Virus record (IMG/VR): IMGVR_UViG_3300045988_072105
Span: 1 to 40,702 of that record
DNA: 40,702 nt
Source of the DNA: a virus
Direction: 5' to 3' (one strand)
The position numbers were made by a program, and so were the translations under genes. Shown here piece by piece: positions 15,154 to 40,638 of the stretch. The number at the start of each line of letters is the position of its first letter. Positions within the stretch are counted from its first letter, which is position 1. Under the pieces are notes generated by a model. It was not told the DNA's origin. It did not search any database and saw only the letters and a program-made list of their open reading frames with translations.

Positions 15154-16035
15154 TTAAGCCGCGACTGCTGCTGGTTTTTCGATTGTTGTTTCAACAACAC
15201 CTTCTGGAATTTCAGCAAAGAGAACGTTTGCTCCGAAGAATACAGATTCGAAAGTCAAATTCTTCAATGCACGATCGCGAGCTACTGCAATAAGTCCGGT
15301 CTCGTCTGTAAAGTCTGCAAACAATCCGCCAAGATCACCACTTGCAACGTTCAAGTTTGCAAAAACAAGGTTTTCGATTGCGGTTGTGTAGATCTTCCCT
15401 TCTGGTACACCGTTCATCACGATAACGTTTTGCATACCCAAGAAATTCTTGAGAAGAGTCATACCGAAGACGTTAGAAGCGTTAGCGCCTACGCCAGCGT
15501 CCCCAAGGTATGCAGCAGCGTCAACCGGATTCACGAAAGTAACGATTGGTGAGCCTTCGAATTCATTGAAGGTTGCGATTTTTGCCCACGCTTGCGCAAG
15601 TGCACCTTGCAATCCTTTACCTTTGTTTTTAGTTGGGTTTGCTTTCAAGAATGTAAAGAATTGCTCTTTGATTCCGTTTTGGATCTCGCGCATAAGACGA
15701 GTATCAGCTTCTGTGATTGCTACTGACGCACCATGACGCGCAATTGCTTCCGCTGACACGGAACGACGTTTTTTGAACCAAGCGACCTCGTATGCTTGCG
15801 CTTTTGCGCGAACCATTTGAGAAAGCGGGATATCTTCACCCTCTGCCGGGTTGGTTGCGTTCACGTCTGCGGTCCATTTGTAAGTTTGAATCTTAAGATC
15901 GCTTGTCAATTCTTGACGACGTGTGACACCAAGAAGTGTCAATAGATCATTGATATTTTTTGAGAATTTGTTGACAAAATCAATAGACTTAATTTCGCCC
16001 AGATTTGCCATTGTTGTTAGTTTTGCTTCAGCCAT
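15154..16035 (-). CDS. Major capsid protein
   Basis: 293 aa, directly after the scaffold gene. The N-terminus MAEAKLTTMANLGEIKSIDFVNKF.. is typical of lactic-acid-bacteria phage capsid proteins. Confidence 0.85.
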   Translation of the reverse strand: MAEAKLTTMANLGEIKSIDFVNKFSKNINDLLTLLGVTRRQELTSDLKIQTYKWTADVNATNPAEGEDIPLSQMVRAKAQAYEVAWFKKRRSVSAEAIARHGASVAITEADTRLMREIQNGIKEQFFTFLKANPTKNKGKGLQGALAQAWAKIATFNEFEGSPIVTFVNPVDAAAYLGDAGVGANASNVFGMTLLKNFLGMQNVIVMNGVPEGKIYTTAIENLVFANLNVASGDLGGLFADFTDETGLIAVARDRALKNLTFESVFFGANVLFAEIPEGVVETTIEKPAAVAA

Positions 16036-16038
16036 ATT

Positions 16039-16635
16039 CTAGCCCTTTCTAAATAATTGAATGTTTTCAGCGATTGCTTGTTGACGCTCGTCGTCATTTT
16101 CAATCGCCATGATATCCTCTTTCGTGAGCCCGTTGATAGCCCCACGACGAGGGGTGCTTTGCACTAAGCGTTCATTGACGCGTTTTTCAACTTCTTTGTC
16201 AAAAACATTTCGCAAGTCAGAAATTTTAGCTTTGACTTCTTCGGCGGTCGGAGCGAGGACGTGTCCGAGGAATTCTTGCGGAAGTCCTTCTTCAACTAGC
16301 AAAGACATTGTTGCCATTTTCATTTCTCGTTCTGCGATTGCTCGCTCACGCTCTTCGATTGCTTGGATTCGCTTTGCTTCCTCTTCTTTGGCGCGTTCGT
16401 CCTTGGTTAGCTTCGCGAGGCGTTCCCCTTCGCTCTTTGCAAGCTCAAGGGCTTCGGCTTGTTCCGCTTCCCAACTTGCGCGAGCTTTTGCGATCTCCGC
16501 TGCGACTGCCTTCCCGAATTCGGCGCGTGTGAAGGTACGCTCTGACTTTTCTTGCTTGGTCTCGACTTGTTCTTTTTGAGCGACGTCTTTCTCAATAGCT
16601 TCGGTCTCGACGGTTGCTTGTGTATTTTCTGACAT
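16039..16635 (-). CDS. Scaffolding protein (DUF4355-like)
   Basis: 198 aa, E/K/A-rich coiled coil (..RTFTRAEFGKAVAAEIAKARASWEAEQAE..). RBS GGAGGAAAA. Confidence 0.85.
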   Translation of the reverse strand: MSENTQATVETEAIEKDVAQKEQVETKQEKSERTFTRAEFGKAVAAEIAKARASWEAEQAEALELAKSEGERLAKLTKDERAKEEEAKRIQAIEERERAIAEREMKMATMSLLVEEGLPQEFLGHVLAPTAEEVKAKISDLRNVFDKEVEKRVNERLVQSTPRRGAINGLTKEDIMAIENDDERQQAIAENIQLFRKG

Positions 16636-16732: not shown

Positions 16733-16759
16733 AACAAAAAAAGCGGTCTATTCCCGCTT
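16733..16759 (-). terminator. Candidate intrinsic terminator after the 45-aa ORF
   Basis: Minus strand: AAGCGG-gaataga-CCGCTT followed by TTTTTT. Confidence 0.5.
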
Positions 16760-16784: not shown

Positions 16785-16922
16785 CTATTTCGTGTGTTTC
16801 TTAATCGCTGTGGTGATTCCATTGATCAATCCGGCAATGATGGACCATCCCACCAATACCAAGATCGCAAGGCATATCAACCCGGCGGTAAACGAAACAA
16901 GATTCCAAATATTTATCATCAT
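16785..16922 (-). CDS. 45-aa single-pass membrane micro-protein (below the ORF-track size cut-off)
   Basis: My own translation: MMINIWNLVSFTAGLICLAILVLVGWSIIAGLINGITTAIKKHTK. AAAGGAG lies just upstream. Bracketed by two terminators. Confidence 0.5.
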   Translation of the reverse strand: MMINIWNLVSFTAGLICLAILVLVGWSIIAGLINGITTAIKKHTK

Positions 16923-16945
16923 TCTCCTTTCTTATTTTGAGCATG

Positions 16946-16973
16946 AAAAAAGCACCTAGATTATTCTAAGTGC
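16946..16973 (-). terminator. Strong intrinsic terminator closing the toxin/hydrolase cassette
   Basis: Minus strand: GCACTTAG-aataat-CTAGGTGC (8-bp stem including one G-U pair) followed by TTTTTT. The stem includes the TAG stop of the hydrolase gene. Confidence 0.8.
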
Positions 16974-17379
16974 TTAAGTAATGAATTGCGTTTTTGTATT
17001 TTTTAACACGCTCGTAGTCTGTATCGGTAACAGATTTCAAACGCGATAAATCTGAGTTGTGTTTCAAATCAGCAAGTTTTACAACTCTTGCTAAATTATT
17101 TGATTTCACTTTTTCAAGATATTCTTGATAACTTTGACCTTTTTTCTTTGTCAAAATCTGTACCGCTGTAACAACTTCGTTTGATAAACCCGAAACCAAT
17201 AAATCATCAACAGTTACATCGCTATCCTCAATAACATCATGCAAAAGAGCGACAGCTTTTTCTTGTTCAGTTTTGACTTGGCTGGCCACATAGAGGGGGT
17301 GCTGTATGTAATCAATACCAGCTTTATCAACTTGCCCCGCATGTGCTTTTTTAGCGATAGCTAAGGCAATATCAATCAT
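16966..17379 (-). CDS. Small alarmone hydrolase (SpoT/Mesh1-type HD domain)
   Basis: 137 aa. AHAGQVDKAGIDYIQHPLYVA, ALLHDVIEDS and VKLADLKHNSDL match the three hallmark RSH hydrolase motifs (H.GQ....G.PY..HP..VA; LLHDVIED; VKLADRLHN). Confidence 0.9.
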   Translation of the reverse strand: MIDIALAIAKKAHAGQVDKAGIDYIQHPLYVASQVKTEQEKAVALLHDVIEDSDVTVDDLLVSGLSNEVVTAVQILTKKKGQSYQEYLEKVKSNNLARVVKLADLKHNSDLSRLKSVTDTDYERVKKYKNAIHYLST

Positions 17380-17585
17380 GCTGCTACCACCCTACTAATA
17401 TAAGCAAACGCGTCCTTTTCTGAAATTTCTTCGAAATCCGTGAAGTCGTTGAAAAAGATTTTATTAAACCAGTCAATGCTATCAACCCACTTTTTTTCGA
17501 TGTCAAAAACTTGCATGACGCCATCAATCAGACGAAGCACTTGAGGATTGTTCGTCGTTGTGTGGTAATATCTAATATCTTTCAT
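17376..17585 (-). CDS. 69-aa acidic hypothetical protein (candidate cognate immunity/antitoxin)
   Basis: Its start lies 1 nt after the stop of the MuF-toxin ORF. Its stop overlaps the hydrolase start (ATGA). I recognise no family. Confidence 0.7.
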   Translation of the reverse strand: MKDIRYYHTTTNNPQVLRLIDGVMQVFDIEKKWVDSIDWFNKIFFNDFTDFEEISEKDAFAYISRVVAA

Positions 17586-17586
17586 A

Positions 17587-19131
17587 TCACTTCACCCTCT
17601 CTATATTTTTAGGAATCTCAAGCCCGTTGCTTAAATCAAGCATTTCTTTAAACAATTTCATGCGTTCTCGATTAGATGTATTCGTATCGCGATACTTCTC
17701 ATAGAGCTCGTGTAAGGGGCCGTTTTTTAACTCAAAACTTTGCCGAGTATGATATTGCATTTCAAAGTTGATTCCGTCTTTTTCAATGACTGTATTCACA
17801 CCTTTATACGGCCCGTCTATCAACCAAGTGTTTTTTACTTTTACAACTTTGTAACCCTCTGTAATAAGATCTTGTTTCATCTTCGAGTACTCTTTTTCAA
17901 AAGTATCTGGATTAAAAATAGTCGTATACCGTAAAGCGTCGTTGATTTCGTTTGCAGCTTTTGAGAAACTTATATTTTCAGTTTGGCTATCTGTTATAAT
18001 TTTACGAGTTAATGACTCTGTCGTTTTCTTTCGAAATTCAAGTCCAGCAAGTTTTTCCTTGCCGGCAATGCGTTGCATATCTCTTGTGATTTCCGGCTCT
18101 ACTTTTGAAATTTGATCAAAAAGTTTTTTACTATGGTATTCGGGCGTTCCATCCCTCATACTTAAATTATACACTTCGTTTGAATTATTTTCAACACTTC
18201 CATTCAACTCTTCTTCGTCCGGCATAATTGTTGACCGGCAATTGTAATGGAACGGGGGCATATTTACCCCTACTTGCGCGTCCTCGAGTTTATACAGTTT
18301 GTCTTCTTGCGCGATTCGCCGGCAAATTTGAGTCGTTCGATCGTCTAGCACGACCAAGATCCGATAGTATTTCAAGCCTTCGCGCTTGTATCGTTTGATC
18401 GTCGCACGATTGACGACGGCTGTCGCGTCCGTCCGGATCAATGTTTCAGCTCTGGACCGTGCCACGTTGAATTCTTTTCGAATCTCGCGGGCCATTTCTT
18501 GTGGACTATCCCCACGGATGAAGCCTTGACGGAATACCTTTTTAAGACTATCCGCGAGGCTGTCCGTATTGCCCCAAAGTTGTGCGGAATAATTCCGGCC
18601 GTTGAATGGCGTCTTGATAACTTCTTCAAACGCTGGACGGTTGATTGCGCCCGCACGGCCACTGACTGACTTACGATAGGCGTATTCTGCCACGTCATAG
18701 AGATATTTTTCGAAGCTCTTATGCAAAGCCCCGGCTAGTACACCGGCACGATAGACGGCCTCTGAATTGAGCAATTGGAGACGCACTGCCCGAGCTGACG
18801 CGTATTGTTCGTTTAACCGGCGCAAGAGCTCGGGATCTTTCTCTGCTTGCTCTCGATACCGTCGGGCATTTTCCGCATAATCGCTCAAGTCCTCGCCACG
18901 AAGGCGCTTCATTGCGTCTTGATAGCTGATCTCGTGGTCCTCCGCGAAGTGTGTATAAAAGTCAAATACCGACCTTTGAAGGCTCACGGATTGCTCACGA
19001 TAGATCTTTTCCATTTCAGCGAAGAAGTTGATATCCTTCCGATCAACGTATTCGAAAATCTCACGGGCTCGGTCTGTCCAATATCGATTATGATCCTCGA
19101 GGATTTTCAGATTCTTCAATTTGTTCGTCAT
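17587..19131 (-). CDS. Minor head protein (SPP1 gp7/Mu F family) with a C-terminal RelA/SpoT-like nucleotide pyrophosphokinase (toxSAS-like) domain
   Basis: 514 aa, RBS GGAGAGGTG. MuF core at aa ~175-305 (..LIRTDATAVVNRA.., ..MPPFHYNCRSTIMP..). C-terminal aa ~360-485 carry FRKKTTESLTRKI, INDALRYTTIF, PYKGVNTVI and FEMQYHTRQSFELKNGPLHELYEKYR, which correspond to the RSH synthetase motifs. Confidence 0.85.
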   Translation of the reverse strand: MTNKLKNLKILEDHNRYWTDRAREIFEYVDRKDINFFAEMEKIYREQSVSLQRSVFDFYTHFAEDHEISYQDAMKRLRGEDLSDYAENARRYREQAEKDPELLRRLNEQYASARAVRLQLLNSEAVYRAGVLAGALHKSFEKYLYDVAEYAYRKSVSGRAGAINRPAFEEVIKTPFNGRNYSAQLWGNTDSLADSLKKVFRQGFIRGDSPQEMAREIRKEFNVARSRAETLIRTDATAVVNRATIKRYKREGLKYYRILVVLDDRTTQICRRIAQEDKLYKLEDAQVGVNMPPFHYNCRSTIMPDEEELNGSVENNSNEVYNLSMRDGTPEYHSKKLFDQISKVEPEITRDMQRIAGKEKLAGLEFRKKTTESLTRKIITDSQTENISFSKAANEINDALRYTTIFNPDTFEKEYSKMKQDLITEGYKVVKVKNTWLIDGPYKGVNTVIEKDGINFEMQYHTRQSFELKNGPLHELYEKYRDTNTSNRERMKLFKEMLDLSNGLEIPKNIERVK

Positions 19132-20638
19132 CTGTCACCTCTCCGTTTTCTGCTTGTTTTTCGAACCGTGGCAATGCTTCGAGTTGCTCTTTTGCCTCGT
19201 CCTTCAAACGCTCGAGCTCGACTTCTGCGTCGATTCCCGTCACTTGATTCAAAATTTCAAAGATCGTTTGCTCGCTCACAATTCCGTACAAGGTGCGGAC
19301 CATTTCGACGATCTCTTTCTCGTTTTGCGGAACATTCGGACGGAATACGATCGCGGTCTCATTGATAAGCTCGTAAGCCGTGCTTTCGTTCCCTTGAATT
19401 TTCCAAATATTCACCGCAAGACGTAACCGTCGCATAAGTCCCGCTTCAAAAAGATCTTGTTGTTGCTCGCGATAGTTGTCAGCAGCCATCAACTTATATT
19501 TCATGGACTCGCCCGATTGAACGCCTCCAAAGTTGCTGTCCAACGTGTTAGGCGTGAACGTAAACCGCAAGATATCATTCACTAGACGCTCTTTGTAAGC
19601 TTCCGCTCCCTTGCTATCATATTCTTTAATGAGATAGCCCGCGTCTGGTGCTGATCCGCCCGGGTTCGGATTGTCATCCAAAATAAGTACTTGAGCGCGC
19701 TTGTATGCCATGGATACCCCAAGGCGACCGTTTGGATTGATCTGACCGTCATCGAAGAAGTCCTTCTCGTCTGCTCCCGTGTACGGGTTGCCTTTAATCA
19801 ACAAAATCGCGTCGTTGCTATTTTGTTGAAAGTTTGCAAGCTCTGACTGTGACAAGTCATAAGCGTCTATATTGTCCAATACTGACTCATACGATCCGAG
19901 GCGTTCTTCATTGTTGCTGTACTCATTGACTGGTACACCGTGGAAGAAATGCTCTTGCTCGTCTTTGAGCTTCATCCCGTCGCTCTTCTGTGAGCTCCAC
20001 TCGTAAGTATAGACGCGATCGGCTGTATATACCTTGATGATCGTCTTACGTTTTGCGTCTCCATAATCAACGTCGTAATAGTTGATCGCCATCAACGAAT
20101 TCTGCTCGTAAGTGTCGTCATAGATGACGAACGTTTGCTCGGGGCTCAACTTGTACAACTTGACCCAAGCGACACGATCGCGCTCTGTTACGGTCAAAAG
20201 CTCATAGGCCCGGCCATAGACGCAAAGATCCTTCTTAATCGACGAGTTGTGCTTCTTCTCGTTGTTCTTCGCGGAGAATACCTTGATATTCTCAAGCATC
20301 ATGTCGTCTTCATTTTTGTACTCGACCGGATTCCCGAGCATGTAACCTTGTTCGAACATGGTGATATACTTTGCAAAATCGCTCGAGATACGGTTGTCTG
20401 CTGCTGTCGAGTCTTCCTTGTCTGGTCGATACTTGATATTATTGTCGCCCTTGTAATAGCGCTTGAGCTCTTGCAAGCGTGGCAATTGCTCTTTCTTGTG
20501 CCGGTTGACGTATCGCTTCAATTGATCGATCCATACGCTAGATGCATAATCGATGACAGCGAAGTCCTCGGTCATCATGAAAAAATGGTCGTTCGCATGA
20601 TCGGCGAAGCGTGTCCCTTTTAAAAAATTAGTAACCAA
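19088..20638 (-). CDS. Portal protein (SPP1 gp6-like)
   Basis: 516 aa, TTG start with GGGAGGT RBS, right after TerL. ..LKRYYKGDNNIKYR..DNRISSDFAKYITMFEQGYMLGNPV.. is typical of this portal family. Confidence 0.9.
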   Translation of the reverse strand: MVTNFLKGTRFADHANDHFFMMTEDFAVIDYASSVWIDQLKRYVNRHKKEQLPRLQELKRYYKGDNNIKYRPDKEDSTAADNRISSDFAKYITMFEQGYMLGNPVEYKNEDDMMLENIKVFSAKNNEKKHNSSIKKDLCVYGRAYELLTVTERDRVAWVKLYKLSPEQTFVIYDDTYEQNSLMAINYYDVDYGDAKRKTIIKVYTADRVYTYEWSSQKSDGMKLKDEQEHFFHGVPVNEYSNNEERLGSYESVLDNIDAYDLSQSELANFQQNSNDAILLIKGNPYTGADEKDFFDDGQINPNGRLGVSMAYKRAQVLILDDNPNPGGSAPDAGYLIKEYDSKGAEAYKERLVNDILRFTFTPNTLDSNFGGVQSGESMKYKLMAADNYREQQQDLFEAGLMRRLRLAVNIWKIQGNESTAYELINETAIVFRPNVPQNEKEIVEMVRTLYGIVSEQTIFEILNQVTGIDAEVELERLKDEAKEQLEALPRFEKQAENGEVTDDEQIEESENPRGS

Positions 20639-39510: not shown

Positions 39511-40638
39511 ATGATTAAAAAATATACGACCAAAAACGGGGAGACTCGTTACTTATTTCAAACTTATCTCGGGATCGATCCCGTGACGGGTAAAGAACGA
39601 CGGACCACGCGCCGGGGCTTCAAAACCATAAAGGAAGCCAAACAAGCGGAAAGAAATCTGCTGCTTGACGTGGAAGAAAACGGGCTTTCTTCTAGCCGAT
39701 CTGAAAAGTCTTTTAAAGAAATTGCTGATCTGTGGTTTGAAAATTATAAAACCACCGTCAAGGCTTCTACTGCTTTTAATACGAAGCAAAAACTTGATTA
39801 TATGATAGCTGAATATTTTGAAGGCATGAACATAGACAAAATAACTGTCATATTTTGTCAATCGTTGTTTATTAAATTAAGCCAAAAGTATTCTATGTAC
39901 GCAAACTATGCTTCGATTATCAATCGCATTTTGAAGTACGCTGTGATGTTAGATATTATAAAAAGCAATCCGATTGACAAAATAATCAAACCAAAAGCTA
40001 AAGAAGTAGAAAAGAAAGATAATTGCTATACCAAAGAAGAGTTAAACACTTTTCTAAAGTTAGCGAAAAAAGAGAGTGCTTTATTCCATACCCTTTTACA
40101 CACCATAGCTTATACTGGTTTACGGCGTGGTGAAGCGCTAGCCCTTAAATGGTCCGATATTGACTTTGAAGAAAAGACTTTATCAGTAAATCGCACCACC
40201 GCATACGTTGACGGAAAACAAGTTTTACAAACCCCAAAAACAAAGGCGAGCAAGCGTGTTATACCTATTGATAATTATACTATCAGCATTTTAAAGAGTT
40301 GGAAGCTAGAACAAAAAAAGCAATACTTTAAAAACGGTGTATCATTTTTACAAGGTGAAAACTTAATTTTCACCAATTCGTGCTGCACTATGTTTGTACC
40401 TAATGAATTTTCGAAAAAACTTAGAAAATTCATTAAGAAATACAATCTAAAACCTATCACCCCTCATGGCCTACGGCACACACACGCTAGCTTATTGTTT
40501 GAATCTGGTATCCAACCCAAAGAGATATCGGACCGATTAGGCCATAACAACATTCAAACAACGCTTGATTTATACACGCACATAAACGACAATCAACGGT
40601 ACAACGTGGTTGAAAAATTCGTAAATTTTATGTCGTAG
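39511..40638 (+). CDS. int: Tyrosine recombinase/integrase
   Basis: 375 aa. N-terminal SAM-like/arm-binding region. Catalytic pattern ..YTGLRRGEALAL.., ..HGLRHTHASLL.., ..LGHNNIQTTLDLYTH... Confidence 0.95.
   Translation: MIKKYTTKNGETRYLFQTYLGIDPVTGKERRTTRRGFKTIKEAKQAERNLLLDVEENGLSSSRSEKSFKEIADLWFENYKTTVKASTAFNTKQKLDYMIAEYFEGMNIDKITVIFCQSLFIKLSQKYSMYANYASIINRILKYAVMLDIIKSNPIDKIIKPKAKEVEKKDNCYTKEELNTFLKLAKKESALFHTLLHTIAYTGLRRGEALALKWSDIDFEEKTLSVNRTTAYVDGKQVLQTPKTKASKRVIPIDNYTISILKSWKLEQKKQYFKNGVSFLQGENLIFTNSCCTMFVPNEFSKKLRKFIKKYNLKPITPHGLRHTHASLLFESGIQPKEISDRLGHNNIQTTLDLYTHINDNQRYNVVEKFVNFMS

Follow-up and report, generated by a model that had tools for sequence, protein, structure and literature searches.

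MuF polymorphic toxins of temperate phages have been defined as a class that includes proteins with RelA-like C-termini, and the small open reading frames (ORFs) downstream of the toxin genes were put forward as candidate immunity genes (PMC5576092, Jamet 2017). In a Bacteroides caccae prophage, the MuF-fused toxin Apk2 (BcTas1) makes (p)ppApp and inhibits growth (PMC10083569, Ahmad 2023). The two genes after it encode first BcTis1 and then Aph1, and protection against this toxin was partial with BcTis1 alone or Aph1 alone and full with both proteins; Aph1, whose structure was solved, is a monofunctional (p)ppApp hydrolase, and a tis1-like gene was always present at such loci, with aph present variably (PMC10083569). 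The same system is found in prophages of Streptococcus pneumoniae SPNA45, Mannheimia, and Pasteurella, and there IapK binds and neutralizes mainly its cognate toxin and the Aph1 proteins cross-protect (PMC12226406, Paulet 2025). The SPNA45 genes apk2, iapK, and aph1 (SPNA45_00317, SPNA45_00318, and SPNA45_00319) are attributed to Bartoli 2023 (J Mol Biol 435:168282), as cited in PMC12226406. Here, we analyze a stretch of viral DNA of 40,702 nucleotides (IMG/VR record IMGVR_UViG_3300045988_072105, positions 1 to 40,702, called the window) in which a gene for a MuF-toxin protein is followed by genes for a protein of 69 amino acids (aa) and a protein of 137 aa. The system in the window is already known, and this locus is a further allele of it on another streptococcal phage backbone. 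We consider it highly probable that the host phage is a temperate Streptococcus (mitis-group-like) siphophage and that the three genes are an Apk2–IapK–Aph1 polymorphic-toxin module.

Compared to the described systems, the window locus shares its layout with SPNA45, in which the trio has the same order and likewise sits downstream of the portal gene in the genome of a temperate phage from a streptococcus. The two differ in phage backbone, as the MuF N-domain of the window is ~25% identical to the pneumococcal one but 78% identical to the Javan311/Javan377 type. The B. caccae system likewise combines a MuF-fused (p)ppApp synthetase with a structural and an enzymatic immunity protein, but it belongs to a distant phylum; BcTis1 is reported to be Tis1-like, whereas the model of the window IapK does not retrieve Tis1, and R96 of the B. 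caccae Aph1 is a lysine in the window Aph1. Tas1/Apk1–Tis1 of Pseudomonas aeruginosa (6OX6) also couples a toxin that is a (p)ppApp synthetase to a small binding immunity protein. That toxin, however, has a PAAR domain, is delivered by a type VI secretion system, and has no hydrolase partner, whereas the window toxin is part of a phage MuF protein. Finally, FaRel–ATfaRel and the toxSAS systems share with the window a toxin with a RelA/SpoT homolog (RSH) fold and a product-degrading antitoxin of the small alarmone hydrolase (SAH) type, a type IV-like logic. These systems are stand-alone toxin–antitoxin (TA) operons, whereas the window toxin forms part of a virion protein, and its fold match to them is weaker than its match to 8VX3.

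An earlier reading of the window from its letters alone, which we call the sequence-only reading, had proposed a toxin, binder, and product-eraser module embedded in a head operon. That idea fits the published experiments with homologues, but the tripartite layout, which was then believed to be uncharacterized, has been described since 2023, in work published from 2023 to 2025 that includes S. pneumoniae prophages. For the hydrolase, the sequence-only reading also named a possible anti-defence role against host alarmone-based immunity, which our comparisons as such neither favour nor disfavour. The gain here is a confident functional annotation for the window phage. Near-identical cassettes are present in dozens of pneumococcal phage records, in which the genes are mostly labelled 'hypothetical protein' or 'metal-dependent phosphohydrolase'.

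Gene arrangement and the predicted toxin domain

All three genes are encoded by the minus strand. The MuF-toxin gene, apk2, occupies 17587..19131 (514 aa; TGA stop at 17589..17587), iapK occupies 17376..17585 (69 aa; ATG at 17585..17583, TGA at 17378..17376), and aph1 occupies 16966..17379 (137 aa; ATG at 17379..17377). Direct reading of the sequence places a single nucleotide (17586) between the apk2 stop and the iapK ATG, and the ATGA at 17379..17376 contains the iapK stop overlapping the aph1 start. Both the 1-nucleotide gap and the ATGA overlap had been described in the sequence-only reading, and the ORF listing and our direct reading agree with it. The same reading had called the 69-aa ORF acidic, as it is: the isoelectric point (pI) of the protein is 4.68, and it has 12 D and E residues versus 8 K and R residues. 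Because the two small ORFs yield matches to phrog_3514, phrog_990, HD_4, and 7SMG, and because the 69-aa protein has 69 database homologues, both are real genes and not chance ORFs. By analogy with the homologous systems, both very probably neutralize the MuF toxin.

The N-terminal part of the 514-aa protein, the MuF core (residues 1–~311, 18199..19131, minus strand), is an SPP1 gp7-like minor head protein. Its MuF domain, at residues 196–304, matches Pfam Phage_Mu_F (PF04233) with E = 2e-15 and TIGR01641 with E = 4e-27. Residues 5–311 share 78% identity with the short MuF proteins (311 aa) of phages Javan311 and Javan377; these proteins have no toxin domain and stop shortly past a conserved ...HYNCRSTIMPD motif. 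The toxin domain, a predicted (p)ppApp-synthetase domain, comprises residues ~325–514 (17590..18159, minus strand).

To this C-terminal domain (~190 residues) we assign an RSH-synthetase fold. A profile built from a 23-sequence alignment of the domain matched the exported small alarmone synthetase 8VX3 (SaEAS) with E = 5e-29 over the whole domain. An AlphaFold2 (AF2) model of the domain had a predicted local distance difference test score (pLDDT) of 92.8, and its best 50 Foldseek matches in the PDB were all RSH synthetases. 8VX3 came first, with a template-modeling (TM) score of 0.76–0.79, followed by RelP, RelQ/SAS1, CapRel, Rel, and SpoT; FaRel2 was also retrieved.

The residues of the domain point to the Apk2 type. 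In Apk2snu, the pneumococcal protein, the (p)ppApp signature that was mutated consists of the catalytic D390, R393-Y394-T395 of syn2, G436 and N438 of syn3, and Y452-H453 of syn4 (PMC12226406). The window toxin has D398, R401-Y402-T403, G444-V-N446, and Y460-H461, at a constant offset of +8 relative to Apk2snu, and these positions are invariant or near-invariant in the 23-sequence alignment. Peptides of Apk2snu derived from the mutagenesis primers are near-identical to the window toxin: KAVSKINDALRYTTIFDSDTF aligns with ...EINDALRYTTIFNPDTF of the window, DGPYKGVNTVVEKD with DGPYKGVNTVIEKD, DGINFEMQYHTQESFD with DGINFEMQYHTRQSFE, and KNIERVK with KNIERVK. Over the toxin domain, identity is about 75–79% to the pneumococcal alleles and 46% to a Pasteurella multocida protein, the latter being the value published for snu versus pmv. 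By analogy with these homologues, the toxin domain of the window is predicted to make (p)ppApp and to be toxic.

In NCBIfam, the model for XopAD/skwp type III effectors matched the toxin domain (17587–18130) with its C-terminal end (E = 6.5e-26). This match fits the Rel-like domains that have been reported in XopAD proteins (PMC12691689).

The predicted immunity proteins

The 137-aa protein contains all three HD motifs noted in the sequence-only reading (AHAGQVDKAGIDYIQHPLYVA, ALLHDVIEDS, and VKLADLKHNSDL), and the catalytic His-Asp pair is H47-D48, as numbered there. It matches phrog_990 with E = 7e-62, the hydrolase region of TIGR00691 with E = 4e-13, and Pfam HD_4 with 27.3 bits, barely over the cut-off of 27.2. 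Its best solved relative is 7SMG, the '(p)ppApp hydrolase' Aph1 of B. caccae, which aligns gap-free with residues 2–136 (E = 1.3e-32), whereas Rel, SpoT, and Mesh1 hydrolase domains match with E = 1e-8 or worse. The placing of this protein with SpoT, Rel, and Mesh1 in the sequence-only reading therefore gives way to the (p)ppApp-specific Aph1 family. Because of the Aph1 match and the toxin signature, the relevant alarmone is expected to be (p)ppApp and not (p)ppGpp.

Six Aph1 residues, D24, R96, D116, R119, K133, and Y134, set (p)ppApp hydrolases apart from (p)ppGpp hydrolases, and the D24R and R119A changes confer ppGpp hydrolysis (PMC10083569). Five of the six are identical in the window protein (D18, D110, R113, K127, and Y128), with K90 in place of R96. 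The window protein is 97% identical to gp18 of S. pneumoniae phage phiARI0462. In related streptococcal phages, aph1 occurs solely downstream of the toxin and iapK genes, and it is absent from toxin-less relatives. These comparisons identify the 137-aa protein as a probable Aph1-type adenosine 3'-pyrophosphohydrolase that is predicted to be (p)ppApp-specific.

Two loci from Ruminococcus/Clostridia metagenome-assembled genomes (L135, 4540–5175; L151, 4534–5169) have a 211-aa ORF that overlaps the toxin stop. In this ORF, an N-terminus of ~70 residues with a weak match to the IapK profile (9 bits, in L151) precedes a clear Aph1 domain (E = 1e-39), and it may be a natural IapK–Aph1 fusion.

A match to phrog_3514 extends over the whole 69-aa protein (E = 5e-35), and the protein is 93% identical to gp19 of phiARI0462, which is encoded at the equivalent position. 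A word-indexed search found 69 homologues, which were close streptococcal relatives only, and an exhaustive HMMER profile search of 1.8 billion proteins found 20 IapK representatives at E values up to 1e-3. By the small number of representatives in the profile search, the IapK family is narrow or fast-evolving. We found no recognizable domain in the protein, and a search of its sequence against the PDB gave nothing meaningful. Its AF2 model (pLDDT 85) has five short strands and two helices. From its position, its strict linkage to the toxin domain, and the 93% identity to the pneumococcal-phage equivalent, a family to which the SPNA45 locus used in the experiments also belongs, we assign the 69-aa protein as IapK; by analogy, it is predicted to bind the toxin domain and block its acceptor site.

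IapK sequence varies with that of the toxin. The gene is absent from the toxin-less phages Javan311 and Javan377, and across loci the identity of IapK to the window protein tracks the identity of the toxin domain (Spearman 0.84). This correlation and the high conservation of Aph1 fit an allele-specific binder combined with a universal enzyme. In three IMG/VR loci (L081–L083), the toxin is 68–73% identical to that of the window and Aph1, where present, is 84–90% identical, but IapK is just 38–50% identical, which suggests that the immunity allele was switched or that the interface co-evolves rapidly. In addition, a 743-bp contig from ENA contains a single ORF (P0070, 151 aa) in which an IapK-like sequence is attached to the C-terminal half of the toxin domain, and this ORF is either a real fusion or an artefact of frameshift or assembly.

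A model for toxicity and immunity

In the mechanism that we propose, (p)ppApp synthesis, toxicity, IapK binding, Aph1 hydrolysis, and cross-protection are carried over from experiments with homologues. The MuF–Apk2 synthetase would move pyrophosphate from ATP onto the 3'-OH of ATP or ADP, yielding (p)ppApp, and this synthesis would be toxic by draining the adenine-nucleotide pool. During late expression, MuF–Apk2 would be made together with IapK and Aph1. IapK, whose gene starts 1 nucleotide past the toxin stop, would bind the cognate toxin domain and block the acceptor-nucleotide site. Aph1, whose synthesis would be translationally coupled to that of IapK through the ATGA overlap, would strip the 3'-pyrophosphate from (p)ppApp and regenerate ATP or ADP; because it would erase the product, its protection would hold irrespective of the toxin allele. 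Together, the two proteins would protect the virion-producing cell and possibly lysogens. The toxin may be packaged in the capsid and injected, and it may serve superinfection, kin competition, or host take-over.

Exchange and distribution of the cassette

Gene anatomy, family membership, signature residues, cassette-like insertion, and synteny are established here; family membership rests on sequence and fold for the toxin and Aph1 and on sequence and position for IapK. A cassette of about 1.2 kb (16945..18111, minus strand) is made up of the toxin domain, the iapK and aph1 genes, and a hairpin at the 3' end. The DNA of this cassette is 87–90% identical to 31 S. pneumoniae phage records, and 1 further Streptococcus record falls in the 95–99% band; the remainder of the window has no match to those pneumococcal phages. 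The closest relatives of the backbone are Javan311 (from S. mitis) and Javan377 (from S. parasanguinis), and both are without the cassette. The stretch 16919..18208 of the window corresponds to about 21 bp in Javan377, and 16786..18216 corresponds to 173 bp in Javan311. Across related loci, the MuF N-domain that carries the cassette varies, with identities of 96%, ~79%, ~57%, and ~25% to that of the window. This presence and absence of the cassette is the modular exchange expected for a polymorphic toxin, and the window is a clean natural case of it, with the block precisely missing from the closest backbone relatives.

We surveyed synteny, as the sequence-only reading had advised, in two sets of loci. 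The viral set consisted of 80 IMG/VR loci with toxin domains 68–93% identical to that of the window. iapK lies directly downstream of the toxin domain in all 80, and aph1 follows iapK in 69; it is missing from 6 loci that have room for it, and the other 5 end too early, so that 69 of the 75 informative related viral loci carry all three genes. In this set, the toxin had a median identity of 75% to its counterpart in the window, IapK one of 87%, and Aph1 one of 93%. The second set consisted of 80 loci in species-representative genomes. All three genes were present in 16 of these loci, 7 from Streptococcus (among them S. infantis, S. suis, and S. rupicaprae), 8 from Pasteurellaceae, and 1 from Sporomusaceae, and 19 loci, mostly from Bacillota, had the toxin and IapK without Aph1. 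The viral set independently reproduces the published rule of an obligatory IapK and an optional Aph1. A further 42 species-representative loci, many from Collinsella, had no detectable IapK or Aph1. MuF-fused toxin domains that are 40–43% identical to that of the window (L104–L150, mostly Collinsella) have no detectable homologue of IapK or Aph1 downstream, and loci of this type presumably use other, unrelated immunity proteins.

Possible expression signals in the cassette

Two promoter-like elements and a terminator-like hairpin lie on the minus strand in the cassette region. The first promoter-like element (18194..18166, TTGAAA-17-TATAAT) is sigma-70-like, with 11 of 12 consensus positions, and ends 6 nucleotides ahead of an in-frame ATG (M325; to 18157) at the junction of the MuF and toxin parts. 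Neither hexamer is altered in 28 related loci, and the ATG is replaced by AAG in some. The spacing would fit a leaderless transcript encoding a free toxin domain, IapK, and Aph1. The second element (17458–17485, TTGATA-16-TAAAAT, 10 of 12 positions) lies inside iapK, upstream of aph1. The hairpin (16950..16975), with 11 pairs and a following T-run, lies at the 3' edge of the cassette, where it overlaps the aph1 stop, and 83 related loci retain its sequence.

A scan for promoter and terminator consensus sequences gave overall counts not above the shuffled expectation, and because the sites are also coding, the evidence for expression signals is weak. We therefore think it doubtful that the cassette has its own signals from which lysogens would make the immunity proteins constitutively, perhaps along with a free, leaderless toxin domain. 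If this were true, lysogens would have immunity against virions of kin phages that carry the toxin, which would provide a mechanism for the role of MuF toxins in kin discrimination or competition that has been proposed but never shown.

Alternative explanations

Several observations weigh against assigning Apk2, IapK, and Aph1 functions to the window genes. Pfam RelA_SpoT did not match the toxin domain even at E = 10, and the RSH assignment consequently rests on the profile search and the fold comparison. The same toxin-domain profile matched Tas1/Apk1 (6OX6) only marginally (E = 0.21), and the SPNA45 toxin was compared through peptides translated from published mutagenesis primers and not at full length. 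The change from R96 to K90 affects one of the six Aph1 specificity residues, although it is conservative and the same lysine is present in the pneumococcal-phage Aph1. For the IapK model, Foldseek searches of the PDB and BFVD gave no significant match (best PDB match, E = 0.6), and Tis1 (6OX6) was absent among the 50 listed matches, a weak negative for a protein of just 69 aa. Lacking a Tis1 fold match, the occlusion mechanism proposed for IapK rests on homology to pneumococcal IapK and not on a fold test. Moreover, the toxin allele of the window is known from its sequence and its homologues only.

Other functions can be proposed for each component. The 137-aa protein might be a general Mesh1/SpoT-like hydrolase of host (p)ppGpp that suppresses the stringent response or an alarmone-based defence, given that HD motifs are common to SpoT and Rel hydrolase domains, that cross-protection by Aph1 shows the enzyme not to be allele-specific, and that aph1 is dispensable in some loci. 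We regard this as quite improbable, because the match to Aph1 (E = 1e-32) is far better than any to (p)ppGpp hydrolases (E = 1e-8 or worse), because the protein retains D18 and R113, the equivalents of the residues at which the D24R and R119A changes confer ppGpp hydrolysis, and because aph1 in related streptococcal phages is confined to positions behind the toxin and iapK genes and is lacking where the toxin is lacking. For the 69-aa ORF, a role as a small factor in head assembly or as a chaperone of the extended MuF protein would be in keeping with its lack of a recognizable domain or significant fold match and with the need of full-length toxin effectors of other systems for chaperones (PMC10083569). 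Yet iapK is linked to the toxin domain and not to the MuF backbone, as it accompanies MuF N-domains with 96%, 79%, 57%, and 25% identity to that of the window and is missing where there is no toxin domain, and the pneumococcal homologue binds and neutralizes its cognate toxin domain. This role is thus extremely improbable, and the 69-aa protein is better described as an immunity protein of the IapK family.

It is also possible to view the trio as a toxSAS-type TA or abortive-infection system, comparable to FaRel/ATfaRel or CapRel, with which the prophage would guard its host from other phages and whose toxin would act inside the lysogen and would not be virion cargo. CapRel and FaRel2 were among the RSH folds retrieved by Foldseek, FaRel has a known SAH antitoxin (as cited in PMC10083569), and a free toxin domain could arise from the promoter-like element and the in-frame ATG where the MuF and toxin parts join. 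However, the toxin is an in-frame fusion to a structural head protein encoded in a late operon, none of the 3 proteins matches PADLOC defence models, and the closest relatives of the toxin are Apk2-type synthetases and 8VX3 and not the tRNA-pyrophosphorylating toxSAS enzymes. The promoter-like site is, moreover, coding, and such sites are not more frequent than in shuffled sequence. We consider this view very improbable, and a defence system as the primary explanation was rejected, as there were no PADLOC matches. An Apk2–IapK–Aph1 module remains our preferred reading of the locus.

Phage context and neighbouring genes

The window comprises a complete temperate phage, which encodes a tyrosine integrase (39511..40638), a helix-turn-helix regulator, and a lysin. 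The trio is located in the head and packaging module, adjoining the portal gene, with the terminase upstream and the scaffold and capsid genes downstream. The portal gene (19088..20638) lies beside apk2; the scaffold gene (16039..16635) is downstream of the cassette, and the major capsid gene (15154..16035) is downstream of the scaffold gene.

Between aph1 and the scaffold gene, a 45-aa ORF (16785..16922, minus strand) encodes a single hydrophobic helix with a pI of 9.8. We considered this membrane ORF as a fourth component of the module and rejected it, as its backbone homologue, Javan377_0016, occurs without the cassette. A second terminator-like hairpin (16741–16759) lies past the 45-aa ORF. 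In 5 of the 6 viral loci from which aph1 is missing, the 45-aa ORF directly follows iapK.

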